Positions 213 to 32,148 of a stretch of 33,679 nucleotides of DNA are shown in pieces (the stretch's first letter is position 1; each line of letters starts with the position of its first letter). Source of the stretch: a virus. Taxonomy: Duplodnaviria; Heunggongvirae; Uroviricota; Caudoviricetes. Where the stretch lies: IMG/VR virus record IMGVR_UViG_2541047882_000006. One strand, 5' to 3'. Position numbers and translations under genes: made by a program. Under the pieces are notes generated by a model. The model was not told where the DNA came from, ran no database searches, and saw nothing but the letters and a program-made list of their open reading frames with translations.

Positions 213-797
213 TTACTCCCTGACAGGATTTGCAGGCCACTCAATATCAGGTGCAGTTGATGTATCAACACGGTTCAGCAACACCCGATACTTTTTCCAG
301 GCTTCCAGCAACAAGGTTTCTTTCTCCGTTGCGATCTCCAGATCTGCAGCATCCTGAAGCGGCGCAATATGCTCACTGGCTACCTGCATCAGGTTGTTTT
401 TTGTTTCTTCCGCCTCCCGGATCCGGAACAGTTTTTCTGCTTCCGTATCCTTCACCCAGGCTGTGCCGTTCCACTTCTGAAACTCCCCTTCCGGCGATAA
501 CCAGGTAACATTTTCCGGTAACGGACCGAGTTCAGAAATAAATAACGCGTCGCCGGAAGCCACGTCATAGACGGTTTTTCCCCGATGATCTTCAACGAGA
601 TGCCACGATGCCTCATCACTGTTGAAAACAGCCACGAAGCCTGCCGGAATATCTGGCGGTGCAATATCGGTACTGTTTGCTGGCAGACCTGTATGAGGCG
701 GAATATATGCGTCACCTTCACCAATAAATTCATTAGTTCCGGCCAGCAGATTATAAATTGTTATGGTCCGTGCTTGTTCACTCATTCTGAATGCCAT
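213..797 (-). CDS. tfaR: tail fiber assembly protein (Tfa family)
   Basis: 194-aa track ORF; sequence recognised as Rac/lambdoid Tfa. Its ATG overlaps the stop of the upstream stf fragment at base 797. Confidence 0.85.
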
Positions 798-16911: not shown

Positions 16912-17849
16912 TTTTCCTCACATATGTCATATAGTAAAGGATTATATATACCGTTGTTTTGGACGCTCAAACAGCGAATCAGATCAAATAAAACGCACAT
17001 TTGTTAACATTTACACAAAGTCTGCGTGGGATATTCTGAAAGAATATCCATAATGTGGAGAGAATCTATTGAAGTGCATGGTGCCGGGTGCCTCCCGGTG
17101 AACAAAATGTTCGTGATACCTGTCGGCGACAGAAAAGGTTAATGGTATCACCCCACCGCACAGGGGGATTCACCATGCAGGAGTTTTCTTAGCAAACTCA
17201 CTGCGCGCCCGGCAACTCCCAACCACATAAAAATGCGGAGTTTGTGGCATTTATGCATATAACTCGCAGGAATTATCTTAAAAAACTGATGTCGATCCGG
17301 ATTAAAAAGAAGCAGGTCATCATCAGATGACTGGAAAAAAGGAAAACAAAAAATACTCATCATACAGTTTTGATTGCAGGGATGAGCCTGCTATGCACAA
17401 TATGCAGAATATAAGCAAGATAAAAATATGCAGGCATATTATTTCGGATTTTGTTATTAACACAACCTTTTTAATAATCATTTGGCATACAATAAACCAG
17501 CCCAGAAAGAACCGCCTAAACAGGCGGTTGGTCAATACAAAGGATGCTTCGTCTTTATTATAGTAATCTGAGGCGTCGGGTGTCTTGTATCAGACAACAT
17601 ATTGTCCCGCTAAACAGCGAATTACAAACCACCCTGCAATGATCTCTCATCTCATTTTATATGAGTTGACGACATCAGGATAACGCATCATCAGCCCCTG
17701 CCAAGAAATATCAAAACTCCCGCCAGCAATGTGTTATCACAATATTGTAAAAAAAACACAGCACCGAAACTATAACTGGTCTCTGTTATAATTTGGAGCA
17801 GAAAGACCAGTTGCCCAACTAGCAGCATTCTCCCCTGCTTTCCTGACGT

Positions 17850-18499: not shown

Positions 18500-18786
18500 A
18501 AATGACCTTTCTTTCTCCAGATTTCTTGTGTGCGAAAAACCCCTTCAGCATGCATCAGGCGCAATTCTTCTTTGGTGTAATCGCTGGTTTTTACCCGCCC
18601 GTCGATTAGATCGTGGCATGAGCTACAGGCTATCGCCGCCTGCATATCGTGTGGTTTTGTCGCTGTTCCGCACGTCCCCGCCAGCCTGTAATGCGCCAGC
18701 ACAGAGGTTTCGGGATTGTGATTGCAGTAGCCAGGGATTCTGATCTGGCACATCTGGCCTTTAGCCGCTTTACGTAAATTCACCAT
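18496..18786 (-). CDS. YbcO-like nin-region protein (DUF1364-type, Cys-rich)
   Basis: 96-aa track ORF; LRKAAKGQMCQIRIPGYCNHNPETSVLAH...IACSSCHD resembles DLP12 YbcO as recalled. Confidence 0.6.
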   Translation of the reverse strand: MVNLRKAAKGQMCQIRIPGYCNHNPETSVLAHYRLAGTCGTATKPHDMQAAIACSSCHDLIDGRVKTSDYTKEELRLMHAEGVFRTQEIWRKKGHL

Positions 18787-19385
18787 TACGCAAACTCCAG
18801 TAGTTGTGCGGCCACATTTTCAACTTCCTCCTGAGAGGAGAATTTACGGAACAGAATCCAGTTCCACAGCACATTCAGTACAGATTTATAAACCTGCTGA
18901 AACTCGACTTCGTCCATATTCGCAAAAGCGATGGATTTTGCCCGACGCCCACGGCTACCGTCCGGATAAATATGCTCGGTGTAAAATCCGGCCTGAATGG
19001 TTACCCACTCGCGGAAAGCCTCAAACGACTTTAGCAACGCCGTATCCCGGGTTCTACGAGTCGCAACGGTGTTAAGGTATTGCTCTGCGGCATCACTCAG
19101 GGCTGATGTGTGTTCCCGACCAACTGATTCGCACAGGTAATCCACGAAACCAGACAGCAGTTCTCGTTCGCGAGGCGTGATCGCCCCACCGACCGGAGTC
19201 CAGTAATCGAATCCCAGTTGCAGGAGTTTGAAAAAACGCTTGTGGAATGCGTAGTTACGCACACGCTTAAAGTCTGCGTGTATCCACTCACCTATTTTGA
19301 TTTGATGCAGAAAATCGCAACTCTCCGGCGTCGCCGGGAGAAGTAAACCAGAAGAGGTTTGTTTGACCAGTTGTATATGCGCCAT
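18786..19385 (-). CDS. nin-region phage protein (DUF1367-like), hypothetical
   Basis: 199-aa track ORF, stop overlapping the downstream gene start; family assignment from memory, uncertain. Confidence 0.45.
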   Translation of the reverse strand: MAHIQLVKQTSSGLLLPATPESCDFLHQIKIGEWIHADFKRVRNYAFHKRFFKLLQLGFDYWTPVGGAITPRERELLSGFVDYLCESVGREHTSALSDAAEQYLNTVATRRTRDTALLKSFEAFREWVTIQAGFYTEHIYPDGSRGRRAKSIAFANMDEVEFQQVYKSVLNVLWNWILFRKFSSQEEVENVAAQLLEFA

Positions 19386-19660
19386 TTCTCAATCTCTCGA
19401 TGGCGCAGTGCAGCAGATGCCAGTTGTTCAGGCTGACGTATAAAGTATAAATAAACTGGTTCCAGTGTAAAGCCCCCACATTGATGGAATAAAAATCAAA
19501 CAATAGATTGCTGGGATAAAAATACAACGCTTATTATTAAAAGCGGTTAGACAAATTAAATTTTAATGTTATGCAAATCTGCCAGATTAGCATAATATCT
19601 CATTTGAAAACCGCTGAAATAACAATCTTATCAGGATTAATCATATTAAGGTGAGTAAAT

Positions 19661-19747
19661 ATGGAAAACAACAAATCTGCACATTACGCTCCTTTTTTAT
19701 CTGTAATACTTTTTGTATTTTGTTGTGTATGGGCGGTATTTTTATAA
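19661..19747 (+). CDS. candidate small hydrophobic peptide (28 aa)
   Basis: ATG at 19661 preceded by AAGGTGAG 5 nt upstream; translates MENNKSAHYAPFLSVILFVFCCVWAVFL; ends just before a strong hairpin. Below the ORF-track size cutoff. Confidence 0.3.
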   Translation: MENNKSAHYAPFLSVILFVFCCVWAVFL

Positions 19748-19762
19748 AACACACCCACAAAT

Positions 19763-19792
19763 AAATCAAACCCGCTACAGCGGGTTTGATTT
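19763..19792. terminator. bidirectional intrinsic terminator between the small ORF (+) and the S8 protease gene (-)
   Basis: Perfect 13-bp inverted repeat AAATCAAACCCGC-taca-GCGGGTTTGATTT, flanked by A/T-rich sequence; convergent genes on either side. Confidence 0.55.
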
Positions 19793-19801
19793 ATATAGTT
19801 G

Positions 19802-22066
19802 TTATACGGAAACTGGCACACGAGCAGGCAATGGATAGTGAGCCCAGTTATTAGCATTTAAAGCTCTTACACCATCAGCATAAACTTGTGTGTTTCCATC
19901 TAATGATTTTAAAGTTACTACAATAGTTACAGGTAAAGGCTCCATTAAGGCCGGTTCATTCGCTCTCAACGTTGTTTTAGCCTGAAGAGCCCAGTTACCC
20001 GAAGTAATTCCTTTATTAAATGCCTTGCGATGAATTTTTACTGGTGACCACTTTCCACCATGCTCAATTTGAGCTCTCTCATATCCAGATTGACCGTTTT
20101 CTCCTTCCATAGGCACTTTTCCTTTTATAGTATTATTCTCAATTAAGCCAAAACTTAGCTCTACGTTCGCGCGAACATATTCACTGCCGGCATTAGGGTT
20201 TAGTGGTGGTGCATATGCAGCAGTAATTACAATCTCACCTTTAAATTTTCCATTTTGAATAAGTGCCGATGGTATGGGATAGTTTTCCTTTCTCCACCTC
20301 ACCCCAGGAACCAAGAATGTTTGGAAAATCAGAGTAAACCTATCATCACTATCATATAAGGTCTCAATAACCTCATTAGGAATTCCCGCTCCCAAATAGC
20401 GTCTTTCACTTGGCGAGTAATCAGGAGAAGATAATTGAGCGGAATGAATTAATAATGCTTTAATCAATGATGGTGAAACATTAAAGTCTGAATTAGTGGC
20501 TATTCTCTGCCATGTATGCGCAGCTAAACTTGCCACAATTGGAGCAGCAAAACTAGTACCAAAATTAGAGCAAAGCCTATTATCTGGCCCTACGACCTTT
20601 AAACTGCTTGCTCCTACATTCCAAGGTCTATGAACCCCACCGCCAGCATGGATTATATCTGGCTTTGGAGTAAATACAGGCCCAGGGCCACGACGAGTAT
20701 ATGGTGTCGGTGTTCCAATTTCACTTAAAGCATCATTAGCTTCCATATGAGAAACTGAACCAACTGTTAGTGCTCGGACTGACTCTCCAGGAGAGGAAAT
20801 TAAATCAGCACCTCCAAGCGGATCAGGATTTGGCCATGTACGTATAGGTTCATCTACATAATTACCTGCAGCAACTACAAACAAAATACCAAATTTATCG
20901 CTGAGCCGATCTAACTCCATCGCAAAATCACTAAACATCTGCTCATTACATGGTCCGCCTCCCAAAGACAAATTCCAGACTTTTATATCTGGTCTTTTAT
21001 TTACAGCATCTGCTAGCCTCAGAATTAAATCTGATATATAAGATCCATTTTCATCTAAAGCACAAACATCATGGATTTTAGATTTTGTATCAGGAATCCA
21101 TGGATGATTGTCATTTAAAAAATGAGCGCCTGATATCAATGAAGACACCATAGTCCCATGTTCATAACTCGTATCAGGAGGAATTACGTATGTTTCCCTA
21201 CTCACTACCCAAGGAGTAATTGTTGCCGCGATGGGGCTTACCCCAGTGTCAAATACAGCAACAATGGGTAATTCTTCTGATGGTACGGGAAAGCTATTTG
21301 TTTCAATGCCAACAGAATCACTTACACTAACCGGGAATGCTGAATATTTTGGTTCTGGAATTAACGTTCTTATACCCGGGTAATCAATGAGAATGTCTAA
21401 TATATATCTATCACTTGGGGATAAATCCATTATCCTTAATAAGGGAAGACCACATTTTTGTCTAATTTCATCATATTTAACTCCGTATTGTTCTAATATA
21501 GAAATAACGTTTTCATAGTTGTTGTAAGTTGCATCTTCACCTGTGTACTCAAATAGTCGTACAAGGATGTTTGATGATTCAAACAAACCATCAGTGCCTC
21601 CCGGAACCTTCCTATTCTCATCCCAAGGTTCAATGCGCTCAATCGCGCTTAGATTAGCCAAAATCGCTTTAATATTCCGATTTAAAATGACTGACTCTAA
21701 TACGTCAAAACAGCCGGCATGAGCAGCAACCAACATTTCATCTATTTTGGCATGACCGGCATTTTGCAATCCAGCCTCTTGAGCAATTTTGTTCGGCCTA
21801 TGCGTTTTGGCTATTCCCTGGTCTCTTAATTTGAAAACCAAAGTACCCAAGCTTCCAGGGTACTCTGAAAGTTTGGATTCTAAATAATGTTTACTGGTTG
21901 TTAAATTTCTTACTAGCCCTTGTCTATATTCGGCTGTTACATCAACCAATACCTTTGCCCCACCGCCAGCGTTTACTATTGCACCCAAGTCACTACTGGA
22001 AAAAGGGATTCTTAACGTTGGGTTTGTAACTTTTGCGTTACTAAACTGTGTACCCCTTCTGCTCAT
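19802..22066 (-). CDS. subtilisin-like serine protease (peptidase S8) with large N- and C-terminal extensions; IetS-like
   Basis: 754-aa track ORF; S8 motifs in order D (VAVFDTGVS, ~aa 273), H (YEHGTMVSS, ~303), N (VVAAGNY, ~402), S (GTSFAAPIVASLAAH, ~505); no N-terminal signal peptide; AGGAG ribosome-binding site; start overlaps the upstream ATPase gene by 26 nt. Confidence 0.8.
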   Translation of the reverse strand: MSRRGTQFSNAKVTNPTLRIPFSSSDLGAIVNAGGGAKVLVDVTAEYRQGLVRNLTTSKHYLESKLSEYPGSLGTLVFKLRDQGIAKTHRPNKIAQEAGLQNAGHAKIDEMLVAAHAGCFDVLESVILNRNIKAILANLSAIERIEPWDENRKVPGGTDGLFESSNILVRLFEYTGEDATYNNYENVISILEQYGVKYDEIRQKCGLPLLRIMDLSPSDRYILDILIDYPGIRTLIPEPKYSAFPVSVSDSVGIETNSFPVPSEELPIVAVFDTGVSPIAATITPWVVSRETYVIPPDTSYEHGTMVSSLISGAHFLNDNHPWIPDTKSKIHDVCALDENGSYISDLILRLADAVNKRPDIKVWNLSLGGGPCNEQMFSDFAMELDRLSDKFGILFVVAAGNYVDEPIRTWPNPDPLGGADLISSPGESVRALTVGSVSHMEANDALSEIGTPTPYTRRGPGPVFTPKPDIIHAGGGVHRPWNVGASSLKVVGPDNRLCSNFGTSFAAPIVASLAAHTWQRIATNSDFNVSPSLIKALLIHSAQLSSPDYSPSERRYLGAGIPNEVIETLYDSDDRFTLIFQTFLVPGVRWRKENYPIPSALIQNGKFKGEIVITAAYAPPLNPNAGSEYVRANVELSFGLIENNTIKGKVPMEGENGQSGYERAQIEHGGKWSPVKIHRKAFNKGITSGNWALQAKTTLRANEPALMEPLPVTIVVTLKSLDGNTQVYADGVRALNANNWAHYPLPARVPVSV

Positions 22067-23195
22067 ATGCTCCTGACTCCTTCAGAATGTTTGAAATTAC
22101 TCTTGATGTAAGTTTGTACAAATTAGCAAGAACTCTGATAGAAAATAATTTTTTATCTTTAGAACGTAACCAACGAATTTCATCTTCGTAAGTGCTTAAA
22201 TTTACACCTTCCATAAGCGATTGAGCAAGATACAAACGCCTATACAATTTGTGGTGATTTATCACACTTGCACCTTCAATAACTGCATCCCTACGTGCAT
22301 CCAAGCTCACCTGTTCAATTATTGCTCCGGATAATCCTTCCGATTTTCTTGATAAATCACTTAAATCTAGATCGCTACATATCATATTCTTTAAACGATT
22401 TTTCCAAATTAACTCTCTCTGATGTATGTCAGGCAGAGGCATTGGAATTCTGAAGCTAAATCGCCTCCAGATTGCAGGATCCAGAAGTTGCTCATGGTTA
22501 GTTGAGGCAATAATTACCGTATCCTCTGATGCCGCATCCATATTCTGCAATAGTGAAATGACAACTCGCTGAAGCTCACCTATATCTCTCTCATTACCTC
22601 TTGCTCCAGCTAAAGCATCAAATTCGTCTAAAAAAAGCACTGATGGCCTCTGCATTACATAATCGAAAACCTGTCTAAGATTTTTGCTGGTTTGTCCCAA
22701 TAAACTACTAATCAAAGTATCGCAACGCACTGTAAGAAGTGGAAAATCTAAGCGGGTAGCGATGTACTTAGATAACATAGTCTTACCTGTTCCTGGCTTT
22801 CCATACACGAGCATACGACTCGGCAATGCTGCATCAGCTTTAACAAACTCATCATAACGTTGAACATTAGTGATAAACTCTTCAACACGGGTACTGATTG
22901 CTGCAGGCAGAAAAATCTCTGAACTGTCTAATTTAGGATAACTGACATCAACAGTGTTGAGTCGACTATCAATATCTACCGGTAATGAGCCCAGAGATAT
23001 CCCACCTCCAGCCCTTTGAGCTCCTGCCAACGCCTGGGGAGCTCTAAGCAACCTTTCTCTTATCATTCTGGCTTGCTTGACCTCCCCTTTTTGTTCGAGC
23101 TTATCTGCCAGCAACCCAGCATAATTACTAGCCATCGAAGCATTTGCCTTTGTTGCACCTTCAATGATTTTTAACACTTCTGATAAATAATCCAT
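22041..23195 (-). CDS. AAA+ ATPase; IetA-like
   Basis: 384-aa track ORF; Walker A GKPGTGKT (~aa 132-139), Walker B VLFLDEFD (~185-192), sensor-1 IIASTNH, arginine pair WRRF; ~125-aa N-terminal and ~130-aa C-terminal non-ATPase regions. Confidence 0.8.
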   Translation of the reverse strand: MDYLSEVLKIIEGATKANASMASNYAGLLADKLEQKGEVKQARMIRERLLRAPQALAGAQRAGGGISLGSLPVDIDSRLNTVDVSYPKLDSSEIFLPAAISTRVEEFITNVQRYDEFVKADAALPSRMLVYGKPGTGKTMLSKYIATRLDFPLLTVRCDTLISSLLGQTSKNLRQVFDYVMQRPSVLFLDEFDALAGARGNERDIGELQRVVISLLQNMDAASEDTVIIASTNHEQLLDPAIWRRFSFRIPMPLPDIHQRELIWKNRLKNMICSDLDLSDLSRKSEGLSGAIIEQVSLDARRDAVIEGASVINHHKLYRRLYLAQSLMEGVNLSTYEDEIRWLRSKDKKLFSIRVLANLYKLTSRVISNILKESGAYEQKGYTV

Positions 23196-31751: not shown

Positions 31752-31946
31752 ATGAGATATGACAATGTTAAACCATGTCCATTTTGTGGTTGTCCATCAG
31801 TAACGGTGAAAGCCATTTCAGGATATTACCGAGCGAAGTGTAACGGATGCGAATCCCGAACCGGTTATGGTGGAAGTGAAAAAGAAGCACTCGAAAGATG
31901 GAATAAACGAACCACTGGAAATAATAATGGAGGTGTTCATGTATAA
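31752..31946 (+). CDS. ralR: restriction alleviation protein / type I toxin RalR (Lar)
   Basis: Track ORF 31713-31946; start at MRYDNVKPCPFCGCPSVTVKA gives the 64-aa K-12 RalR; Cys-rich. Confidence 0.85.
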   Translation: MRYDNVKPCPFCGCPSVTVKAISGYYRAKCNGCESRTGYGGSEKEALERWNKRTTGNNNGGVHV

Positions 31947-32148
31947 AATTACCGCCACTATTGAAAAGGAAGGTGGCACTCCTACTAACTGGACAAGATA
32001 TTCAAAATCTAAACTAACGAAATCAGAATGCGAAAAAATGCTCTCAGGTAAAAAAGAAGCAGGCGTTTCCAGAGAGCAGAAAGTAAAACTGATAAATTTT
32101 AATTGCGAGAAACTTCAGTCCTCGAGAATTGCATTGTATTCAAATTAA
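31939..32148 (+). CDS. ydaC: YdaC
   Basis: Track ORF 31867-32148; start at MYKITATIEKEGG preceded by GGAGG; overlaps the ralR stop. Confidence 0.7.
   Translation: MYKITATIEKEGGTPTNWTRYSKSKLTKSECEKMLSGKKEAGVSREQKVKLINFNCEKLQSSRIALYSN

Follow-up and report, generated by a model that had tools for sequence, protein, structure and literature searches.

Within a 33,679-nucleotide (nt) stretch of a lambdoid prophage of E. coli (IMG/VR record IMGVR_UViG_2541047882_000006; hereafter the window, meaning the whole of it), we analyzed a plus-strand open reading frame (ORF) of 28 codons at positions 19661-19747, and found that it is very probably a real small gene, one that is absent from every database annotation. 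The gene has a defined and conserved anatomy, its frame is under purifying selection and it persists independently of the cargo genes beside it. We further infer a promoter, expression in the lysogen, insertion into the inner membrane and a membrane topology for its product. The account that we prefer, with a confidence somewhat better than even, is that of a moron-like cassette for an inner-membrane microprotein of 28 residues, which would be produced in lysogens and whose gene occupies the fixed border of a prophage defense hotspot.

The ORF starts with an ATG at 19661, ends with a TAA at 19745-19747 and encodes the peptide MENNKSAHYAPFLSVILFVFCCVWAVFL. It is preceded by the Shine-Dalgarno sequence AAGGTGAG (19648-19655), separated from the start codon by a 5-nt spacer (TAAAT). 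Residues 1-10 of the product are polar and a single predicted hydrophobic helix then runs to the C-terminus, for which the insertion energies of the Hessa scale add up to -1.4 kcal/mol in the window peptide and to -0.5 to -2.2 kcal/mol across all variants (19-residue segment). Downstream of the ORF lies a bidirectional hairpin terminator (19761-19794, both strands), the two 16-nt arms of which (19761-19776 and 19779-19794) are 100% complementary and have U-rich tracts on either side; a terminator scan scored it as 15 pairs with a 4-nt loop and a U-rich tail. Being U-rich on both sides, the hairpin can also terminate iteS (19802-22066, minus strand), the S8 peptidase gene with which the ORF is convergent. 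The small gene sits between iteS and the DUF1367 gene.

Much of this anatomy had been proposed by an earlier sequence-only reading of the same DNA. The well-spaced Shine-Dalgarno sequence ahead of a 28-codon ORF, the polar N-terminus followed by one hydrophobic helix and the convergence with the S8 protease gene were all recovered, and the ORF is indeed without annotation in the identical RefSeq locus. The perfect 13-bp-stem terminator that it described is perfectly paired, but its arms are longer than 13 nt.

Conservation of the reading frame

All 127 copies first analyzed, which represent 14 DNA haplotypes, have exactly 28 codons in the same frame with the same start and stop, and the additional haplotypes collected in a third scan all begin with MENN and also have 28 codons. 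In a sample drawn by nucleotide similarity, and hence without bias towards intact ORFs, 14 of 15 loci were intact and one was truncated by IS1. At the peptide level, the N-terminus reads MENNKxAH, in which E2, N3, N4, A7 and H8 are invariant, as are the helix residues P11-F-L-S, I16-L-F, W24-A and F27-L; at least one Cys is found at positions 20-22, with position 20 being hypervariable (F, L, C, G or S). A Shine-Dalgarno sequence is present in every clade, as AAGGTGAG, AAAGTGAG or AAGGTGGT.

The substitutions also follow the frame. Between clades, the ratio of non-synonymous to synonymous substitution rates (dN/dS, Nei-Gojobori) was 0.08-0.28 in the ORF frame and about 0.4-4.3 in the other two sense frames. 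Third codon positions hold 13 of the 27 variable sites of the ORF, and the 15 synonymous and 20 non-synonymous events counted on a minimum spanning tree of the haplotypes amount to a synonymous excess in the ORF frame (expected fraction 0.199, binomial P=0.0017). Measured against the window sequence, the ORF has diverged by 8% in the clade found in rem/hokD context and by 18% in the clade found beside a DUF1971 gene, with no gaps in either. The block just upstream at 19529-19583 behaves likewise (9% and 18%, no gaps in either). The putative 5' untranslated region (5'UTR, 19584-19647, plus strand) evolves fast, having diverged by 22% and 41% (up to 43%) in the same two clades with 1-2-nt indels in both, that is two to three times as much as the ORF. 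Constraint acts on the ORF and on a promoter-sized block upstream of it, with the leader evolving almost neutrally, which is the pattern of a coding gene with a conserved promoter and not that of a small RNA (sRNA) or of a chance ORF. Conservation of the frame in homologous loci was among the checks named beforehand by the sequence-only reading, and its suggestion of a possible real gene for a single-helix membrane peptide is strongly supported by this conservation together with the synonymous excess.

That reading also carried the worry that such an ORF might be a product of AT-rich DNA. Hydrophobic ORFs do arise readily from AT-rich intergenic DNA (PMC11188072) and the family is recent and narrow, which would suit a chance ORF whose conservation reflects recent common descent only. 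Against this, the combination of features is rare. The two strands of the window together hold 440 ATG ORFs of 15-50 codons, of which 13 carry a Shine-Dalgarno sequence, two carry a transmembrane (TM)-like segment and only one, the small ORF, carries both; it is also the sole ORF of the window that combines a Shine-Dalgarno sequence, a TM segment and a hairpin. When 100 first-order Markov sequences were simulated to match the AT-rich island in composition, a Shine-Dalgarno sequence together with a TM segment occurred 0.09 times per 33.7 kb, and the three features never occurred together. In addition, the flanking non-coding DNA of the same loci is 22-43% diverged with indels and the ORF has none, its dN/dS is low (0.08-0.28) and 127 of 127 copies are intact. 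A chance origin, already disfavored, is thus extremely improbable, and the worry is not borne out.

Two ORFs lie antisense to the small gene on the minus strand, at 19684-19857 (57 codons) and 19641-19769 (42 codons). We rejected both as genes: the 57-codon frame shares wobble positions with the small gene and so mimics a synonymous excess, but neither its start nor its stop is conserved and both ends vary with the context; the 42-codon frame shows no selection and again no conserved start or stop. Some loci offer N-terminal extensions of the small ORF. In four IMG/VR contigs (L032-L035) the Shine-Dalgarno region changes from AAAGTGAG to AAAGCGAG and the in-frame TGA before the ATG is gone, which opens a possible extended frame of 55 codons, and another locus (L160) has a 36-codon N-terminal extension.

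Searching for homology by DNA comparison and tblastn, we found a 241-bp block of this locus in 1177 of 5426 complete E. coli genomes (blastn), at identities from 100% down to about 73%, and no annotated feature under the block in any of the 1177. The gene is equally unannotated in the loci that we fetched, including that of CFT073 (NC_004431.1, complement(1338563..1338649)). About 195 IMG/VR contigs encode the peptide and a further 37 carry a divergent clade, and a set of species-representative genomes adds E. ruysiae and Shigella flexneri only. By tblastn against phages and plasmids, matches were confined to four induced E. coli prophages, in the GenBank records of which the gene is again unannotated, and to two chromosome-sized "plasmid" records. 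The single disrupted copy in the nucleotide-derived sample is that of E. coli PK8566 (locus L008, 2287-3069), where insertion of IS1X2 deleted the candidate promoter, the Shine-Dalgarno sequence and the first six codons, leaving a chimeric frame (...ESLPAHLAPFLSVILFACCFIWALFL).

None of six peptide variants was present, by exact look-up, in a collection of 15 billion proteins, and Pfam, NCBIfam, PHROGs and PADLOC gave no real match for the peptide. A scan of viral contigs with a degenerate C-terminal pattern for relatives with a different N-terminus returned chance matches only. Neither of two peptide strings occurs in the searchable literature of 8 million papers, and we did not find the peptide sequence among the supplements to the Sakai intergenic small-gene study or to the EDL933 transcription start site (TSS) study, nor in the supplementary text of the Enterobacteriaceae microproteome (PMC11188072), the long files of which are possibly incomplete. 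We discarded a preprint on Pas sRNAs as a record of the gene, as it covers other loci. A 2026 preprint on ribosome profiling (Ribo-seq) of CFT073 reports 338 new small ORFs (10.64898/2026.09.28.754932). The gene is missing from RefSeq, Pfam, NCBIfam, PHROGs and the 15-billion-protein collection because it is shorter than the cut-offs of gene callers. Provided that the peptide is made, a conserved prophage gene has been overlooked in roughly a fifth of the sequenced E. coli genomes, that of the model uropathogen CFT073 among them.

The border of a cargo hotspot

In the window, the early-right operon lies on the minus strand and comprises, in order, the replication-region genes DUF977/DUF1627, iteA (22041-23195), iteS (19802-22066), the DUF1367 gene (18786-19385), the DUF1364 gene and the Q-like DUF1133 gene. 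The small gene belongs to a conserved module of about 340 bp that runs from about 19408 to the stop codon (~19748) and reaches the terminator in the window and hokD clades. At its left end, homology with loci of the rem/DUF968 context begins at about 19408. At its right end, where the neighbor changes, homology ends either at query position 189 (window position 19748, the base that follows the stop codon) or at query positions 216-227, just past the terminator core.

The two sides of the module differ in their neighbors. On the left, two main kinds of nin region were found, made either of DUF1367, DUF1364 and DUF1133 or of a rem-like gene, DUF968, RusA and Q. On the right, the neighbors seen in 110 loci fall into at least 19 different sequence clusters. 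The commonest right flank is hokD with a mok-like frame, which is convergent with the small gene and has the terminator core in common with it; the GC core ACCCGC...GCGGGT of the terminator is shared by the hokD-context loci, where hokD ends there too. Other right flanks are relBE-hokD, IetAS, a DUF1971 gene and pairs of AAA-ATPase genes, and further ones are an OLD-like ATP-dependent nuclease, several large NTPases, a "beta protein/sce7726" pair and insertion sequence (IS) elements. In the DUF1971 clade the terminator is absent and homology stops at the stop codon. The Qin prophage of K-12 has the homologous rem-hokD interval without the small gene. The GC content is 0.35 at the small gene and about 0.49 in the adjacent nin genes.

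As homology stops at the stop codon or the terminator and many different cargos lie beyond, the small gene is part of the conserved flank of the hotspot and not of the IetAS island. This cargo and defense hotspot is located between the replication genes and the nin/Q genes, and its fixed left border is marked by the small gene. The location inside the AT-rich cargo island given by the sequence-only reading therefore has to be corrected: the ORF is at the edge of the island, in a module of about 340 bp that is conserved independently of the cargo. We also rejected the ORF as a component of IetAS, the junction with iteS being covered in only 77 of 1360 matching genomes and at least 19 other right-hand neighbors existing. 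Neither is it an obligate part of a hok/sok unit: it occurs without hok in the window and in the DUF1971 clade, hokD occurs without it in K-12, and only the terminator core is common to both. This fixed position beside IetAS, hok/sok, OLD-like nucleases and large NTPases makes the gene a landmark for searching defense systems in lambdoid prophages.

Several features of the neighboring DNA were noted along the way. The cargo of the window itself (19802-23195, minus strand) is a complete anti-phage system, IetAS (IteA/IteS), formed by an AAA ATPase of 384 amino acids (aa) and an S8 peptidase of 754 aa; both IetA and IetS were confirmed by PADLOC, and IetAS is the hotspot cargo of this prophage. 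In the DUF1971 clade (L006, L007 and related loci), the small ORF is followed about 450 nt to its right by a DUF1971 (YeaR-like) gene in the same orientation, which makes co-transcription possible, and a minus-strand promoter-like match, TTATCA-17-AATAAT, is found at the 3' end of the ORF. In five loci (L027, L043, L032, L002 and L006), a Cys-rich ORF of 72-107 codons (...TGCCVPFLQNKITETIPNS...CRAGSQMCA.YCGCNGNLLSCCCSYGSPF) recurs in otherwise different contexts on the minus strand upstream of hokD/mok, with the small ORF about 480-800 nt to its left; this could be either a genuine gene or the conserved hok leader read in one frame.

Candidate promoters and possible roles

The best-conserved non-coding block of the module (19529-19583, plus strand) holds a candidate promoter for the small gene, which we read as TAGACA at 19548-19553 followed by a 16-nt spacer and an extended -10 element, TG-t-TATGCA, at 19567-19575. 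Transcription would start near 19582, giving a predicted leader of about 78 nt, a length that is approximate. In both minimum free energy and consensus folds of the transcript, the Shine-Dalgarno sequence and the AUG pair with codons 8 and 10-12; this helix is kept in three clades via one-sided changes only, with a consensus energy of -5.7 kcal/mol and no covariation. The transcript as a whole folds better than its shuffles (z=-3.4), mostly owing to the terminator.

Further upstream, the module (19408-19528) contains a leftward promoter match and two direct repeats. The match, TTTACA-16-TATACT, is strongly sigma-70-like (10/12; 19471->19444, minus strand) and faces the nin-type genes. It is found in three different contexts (also at 2887-2914 in L004 and at 2880-2907 in L006) and is kept whether the first nin-type gene is DUF1367 or rem-like. 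As read from the sequence, this match and the candidate promoter of the small gene suggest a divergent promoter region; a promoter feeding a Q-like antiterminator operon in the lysogen would need control. Between the two divergent candidates lie the 22-nt direct repeats ATTGATGGAATAAAAATCAAAC (19480-19501) and ATTGCTGGGATAAAAATACAAC (19507-19528), which are conserved in two clades. As they are 39% diverged in the DUF1971 clade, a function for them is doubtful, and we set them aside as functional elements, together with a 13-nt inverted repeat flanking the module and a palindrome at the predicted TSS (AATCTG-C-CAGATT), none of these being conserved across clades.

We propose that the promoter, the 28-codon ORF and the terminator would form a self-contained AT-rich unit on the strand opposite to the early-right operon. 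Its carriers are lambdoid prophages of the Qin/Rac-like kind in Escherichia and Shigella. As the unit would be transcribed against the repressed early operon, the peptide should be made in the lysogen. There, it would insert into the inner membrane with its N-terminus in and its C-terminus out, leaving the short polar N-terminus in the cytoplasm, and could act at the membrane, for example by modulating a host or phage membrane protein, or in lysogenic conversion or exclusion. The small gene is also a candidate for a membrane function expressed in lysogens.

Several points weigh against this proposal or against the gene itself. As a young family of narrow range, confined to Escherichia and Shigella and with amino-acid identities of at least 71%, it offers only about 35 substitution events for the selection test. 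The wobble-sharing antisense frame also has a synonymous excess (P=0.0036), which is an expected by-product of sharing its wobble positions with the ORF frame. The Shine-Dalgarno sequence is weakened (AAAGTGAG) in the commonest clade. The candidate promoter has an atypical -10 element (TATGCA) and was not called by the consensus scan, which missed it because the -10 has no final T. The case for transcription and translation is built from sequence comparison. Moreover, the gene is dispensable, the Qin prophage of K-12 having no copy and one copy elsewhere being cut short by IS1. Finally, the role of non-toxic modulator is a preference of ours and not a result.

The sequence-only reading had listed type I toxins among the possible products, and the ORF could encode a toxin that belongs to a new type I toxin-antitoxin module of ShoB- or Ibs-like architecture and that would depolarize the inner membrane when in excess and be silenced by an mRNA fold hiding the Shine-Dalgarno sequence together with an antisense RNA, for instance one started from the minus-strand match TTTCCA-16-TATGAT over the ATG. 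The size and shape are those of ShoB, with a polar N-terminus followed by a helix to a C-terminal ...FL, and at 28 aa (the toxins being <60 aa with a TM helix) and Hessa sums of -0.5 to -2.2 kcal/mol the peptide falls within the range for such toxins. The gene would also have its own candidate promoter and a long leader, the predicted folds pair the Shine-Dalgarno sequence and AUG with the invariant codons 8 and 10-12, a minus-strand promoter-like match covers the start codon in two clades, hokD is the usual neighbor and the type I system RalR/RalA is present in the window as well. However, the peptide has no match to models of Hok, Ldr, Ibs, ShoB, TisB, DinQ or Zor at E<=10, and scans of Pfam and NCBIfam at the same threshold gave only chance matches (Sec20 and Lp6.6). 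There are no matches to Rfam antitoxin families either, nor a complementary repeat upstream such as a divergent antitoxin acting in trans would be expected to have. The minus-strand promoter matches are at the level of shuffled sequences (2 found, 2.2 expected); they differ between clades, the scan of the DUF1971 clade did not call the match over the ATG, and no convincing terminator was seen for the putative antisense RNA. Known type I toxin mRNAs have conserved leaders, whereas here no other part of the module evolves as fast as the leader, and the gene is present as one copy per prophage, not in tandem arrays. The search for an antisense sRNA advised by the sequence-only reading thus yielded no promoter conserved across clades or above the shuffle expectation, and its toxin suggestion found no support beyond size and hydrophobicity. 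Judged from its sequence, membership of the peptide among type I toxins is not supported; we regard this explanation as unlikely, and a non-lethal membrane role as somewhat more likely than that of a classical type I toxin.

We hold as quite doubtful a broader version in which the microprotein is the effector of an unrecognized prophage function tied to the defense hotspot, being either a new short toxin like those of type I or an abortive-infection peptide, or else a membrane modulator. As a toxin, its synthesis might be controlled by convergent early-operon transcription through the bidirectional terminator, with antisense RNA appearing only after induction or superinfection; as a modulator, it might bring exclusion or fitness benefits to the lysogen. 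If this were true, a widespread (~20% of E. coli) and functionally new prophage gene would have been overlooked by every annotation pipeline.

The locus might also act at the level of RNA or transcription, with the ORF incidental or weakly translated. The rightward transcript and the bidirectional terminator could insulate the nin/Q genes from read-through of constitutively expressed cargo, or the transcript of about 200 nt could be a regulatory sRNA. A promoter, an RNA of about 200 nt and a strong intrinsic terminator are indeed the anatomy of an sRNA, in every context the site separates the cargo directly from the Q-type antiterminator operon, conservation of the promoter block equals that of the ORF and the transcript folds better than shuffles, though mostly through its terminator. 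What speaks for the coding gene is that the synonymous excess is seen in the ORF frame and, beyond it, only in the wobble-sharing antisense frame, and that start, stop, length and Shine-Dalgarno sequence are kept in every clade. The DUF1971 clade keeps the ORF without the terminator, homology ending at the stop codon, and hence the terminator does not constitute the conserved unit; conservation is poor in the untranslated part of the transcript, and the transcript matches no Rfam family. As the sole function, an RNA-level role is therefore improbable; an insulator or sRNA is possible as an additional role of the microprotein gene.

Two further assignments were tried and rejected. A leader peptide or attenuator does not fit, as the next gene is convergent in the window and in the hokD contexts, and the Rfam matches to Phe and Leu leaders are far below their gathering scores (24.9 vs 55 and 20.7 vs 50). 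A lipoprotein precursor does not fit either, as the main clades have no lipobox [LVI][ASTVI][GAS]C, but FVFC or FVLC with a bulky residue at -1; LFAC or FAGC at the end of the hydrophobic segment is found in minor clades only.

Rfam also matched other elements elsewhere in the window. RalA, the antitoxin sRNA of RalR, matched with 225 bits, well above the gathering score, at 31945-32123 (minus strand), overlapping an ORF at 31867-32148 (plus strand), which means that the prophage carries a Rac-type RalR/RalA type I toxin-antitoxin system. The prophage-associated sRNA STnc100 (86.6 bits; 17022-17208, minus strand) and IS009 (223 bits; 256-454, minus strand) were also above their gathering scores.

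Comparison with known systems

The short type I toxins of E. coli are ShoB (26 aa), Ibs (18-19 aa), TisB (29 aa) and ZorO (29 aa). Like these, the peptide has fewer than 30 residues and is essentially one hydrophobic helix, with an architecture similar to that of ShoB in ending with a C-terminal ...LFL or ...VFL. The small gene would likewise have a promoter, a long leader and possibly a fold occluding its Shine-Dalgarno sequence, and it lies on a prophage beside hok in most loci. It differs from them in that the peptide has no similarity in sequence or by hidden Markov model, and in that the gene is single-copy, with a poorly conserved leader and no detectable antitoxin RNA.

The small inner-membrane regulators of E. 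coli, MgtS, AcrZ, PmrR, MgrB, KdpF and CydX, have about 29-49 aa. The peptide resembles them in size range and in its single predicted TM helix, and the invariant polar residues of its short soluble tail could contact a partner. In contrast, the genes of these regulators are chromosomal and usually adjoin or are co-regulated with that of their partner, while the neighbors of the small gene vary freely, and thus no partner can be deduced from its context.

As an unannotated intergenic small ORF in a lambdoid prophage, the gene is also comparable to those encoding YnfQ, YnfR, YnfS and YnfU, found by Ribo-seq in the cryptic Qin prophage of K-12. With these proteins and with the intergenic microprotein clusters of Enterobacteriaceae (PMC11188072), it shares a hydrophobic and lineage-restricted product under purifying selection. 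The peptide is homologous to none of the Ynf proteins or of the clusters, and it is absent from K-12.

Phage morons were defined by Hendrix and colleagues, with HK97 gp15 and lambda bor and lom as examples. Compared with them, the small gene is much smaller (28 aa), it is the conserved flank beside exchanged cargo and not the cargo, and it has no terminator in the DUF1971 clade. Nevertheless, the candidate promoter, the gene and the terminator would form a cassette set between conserved phage genes, the GC content of which is below that of its neighbors (0.35 vs about 0.49), and which is patchy among relatives, as its lack in the Qin prophage of K-12 indicates. Its orientation would permit expression from the repressed prophage, and a membrane site, predicted here for the small peptide, is also that of HK97 gp15, an inner-membrane protein.

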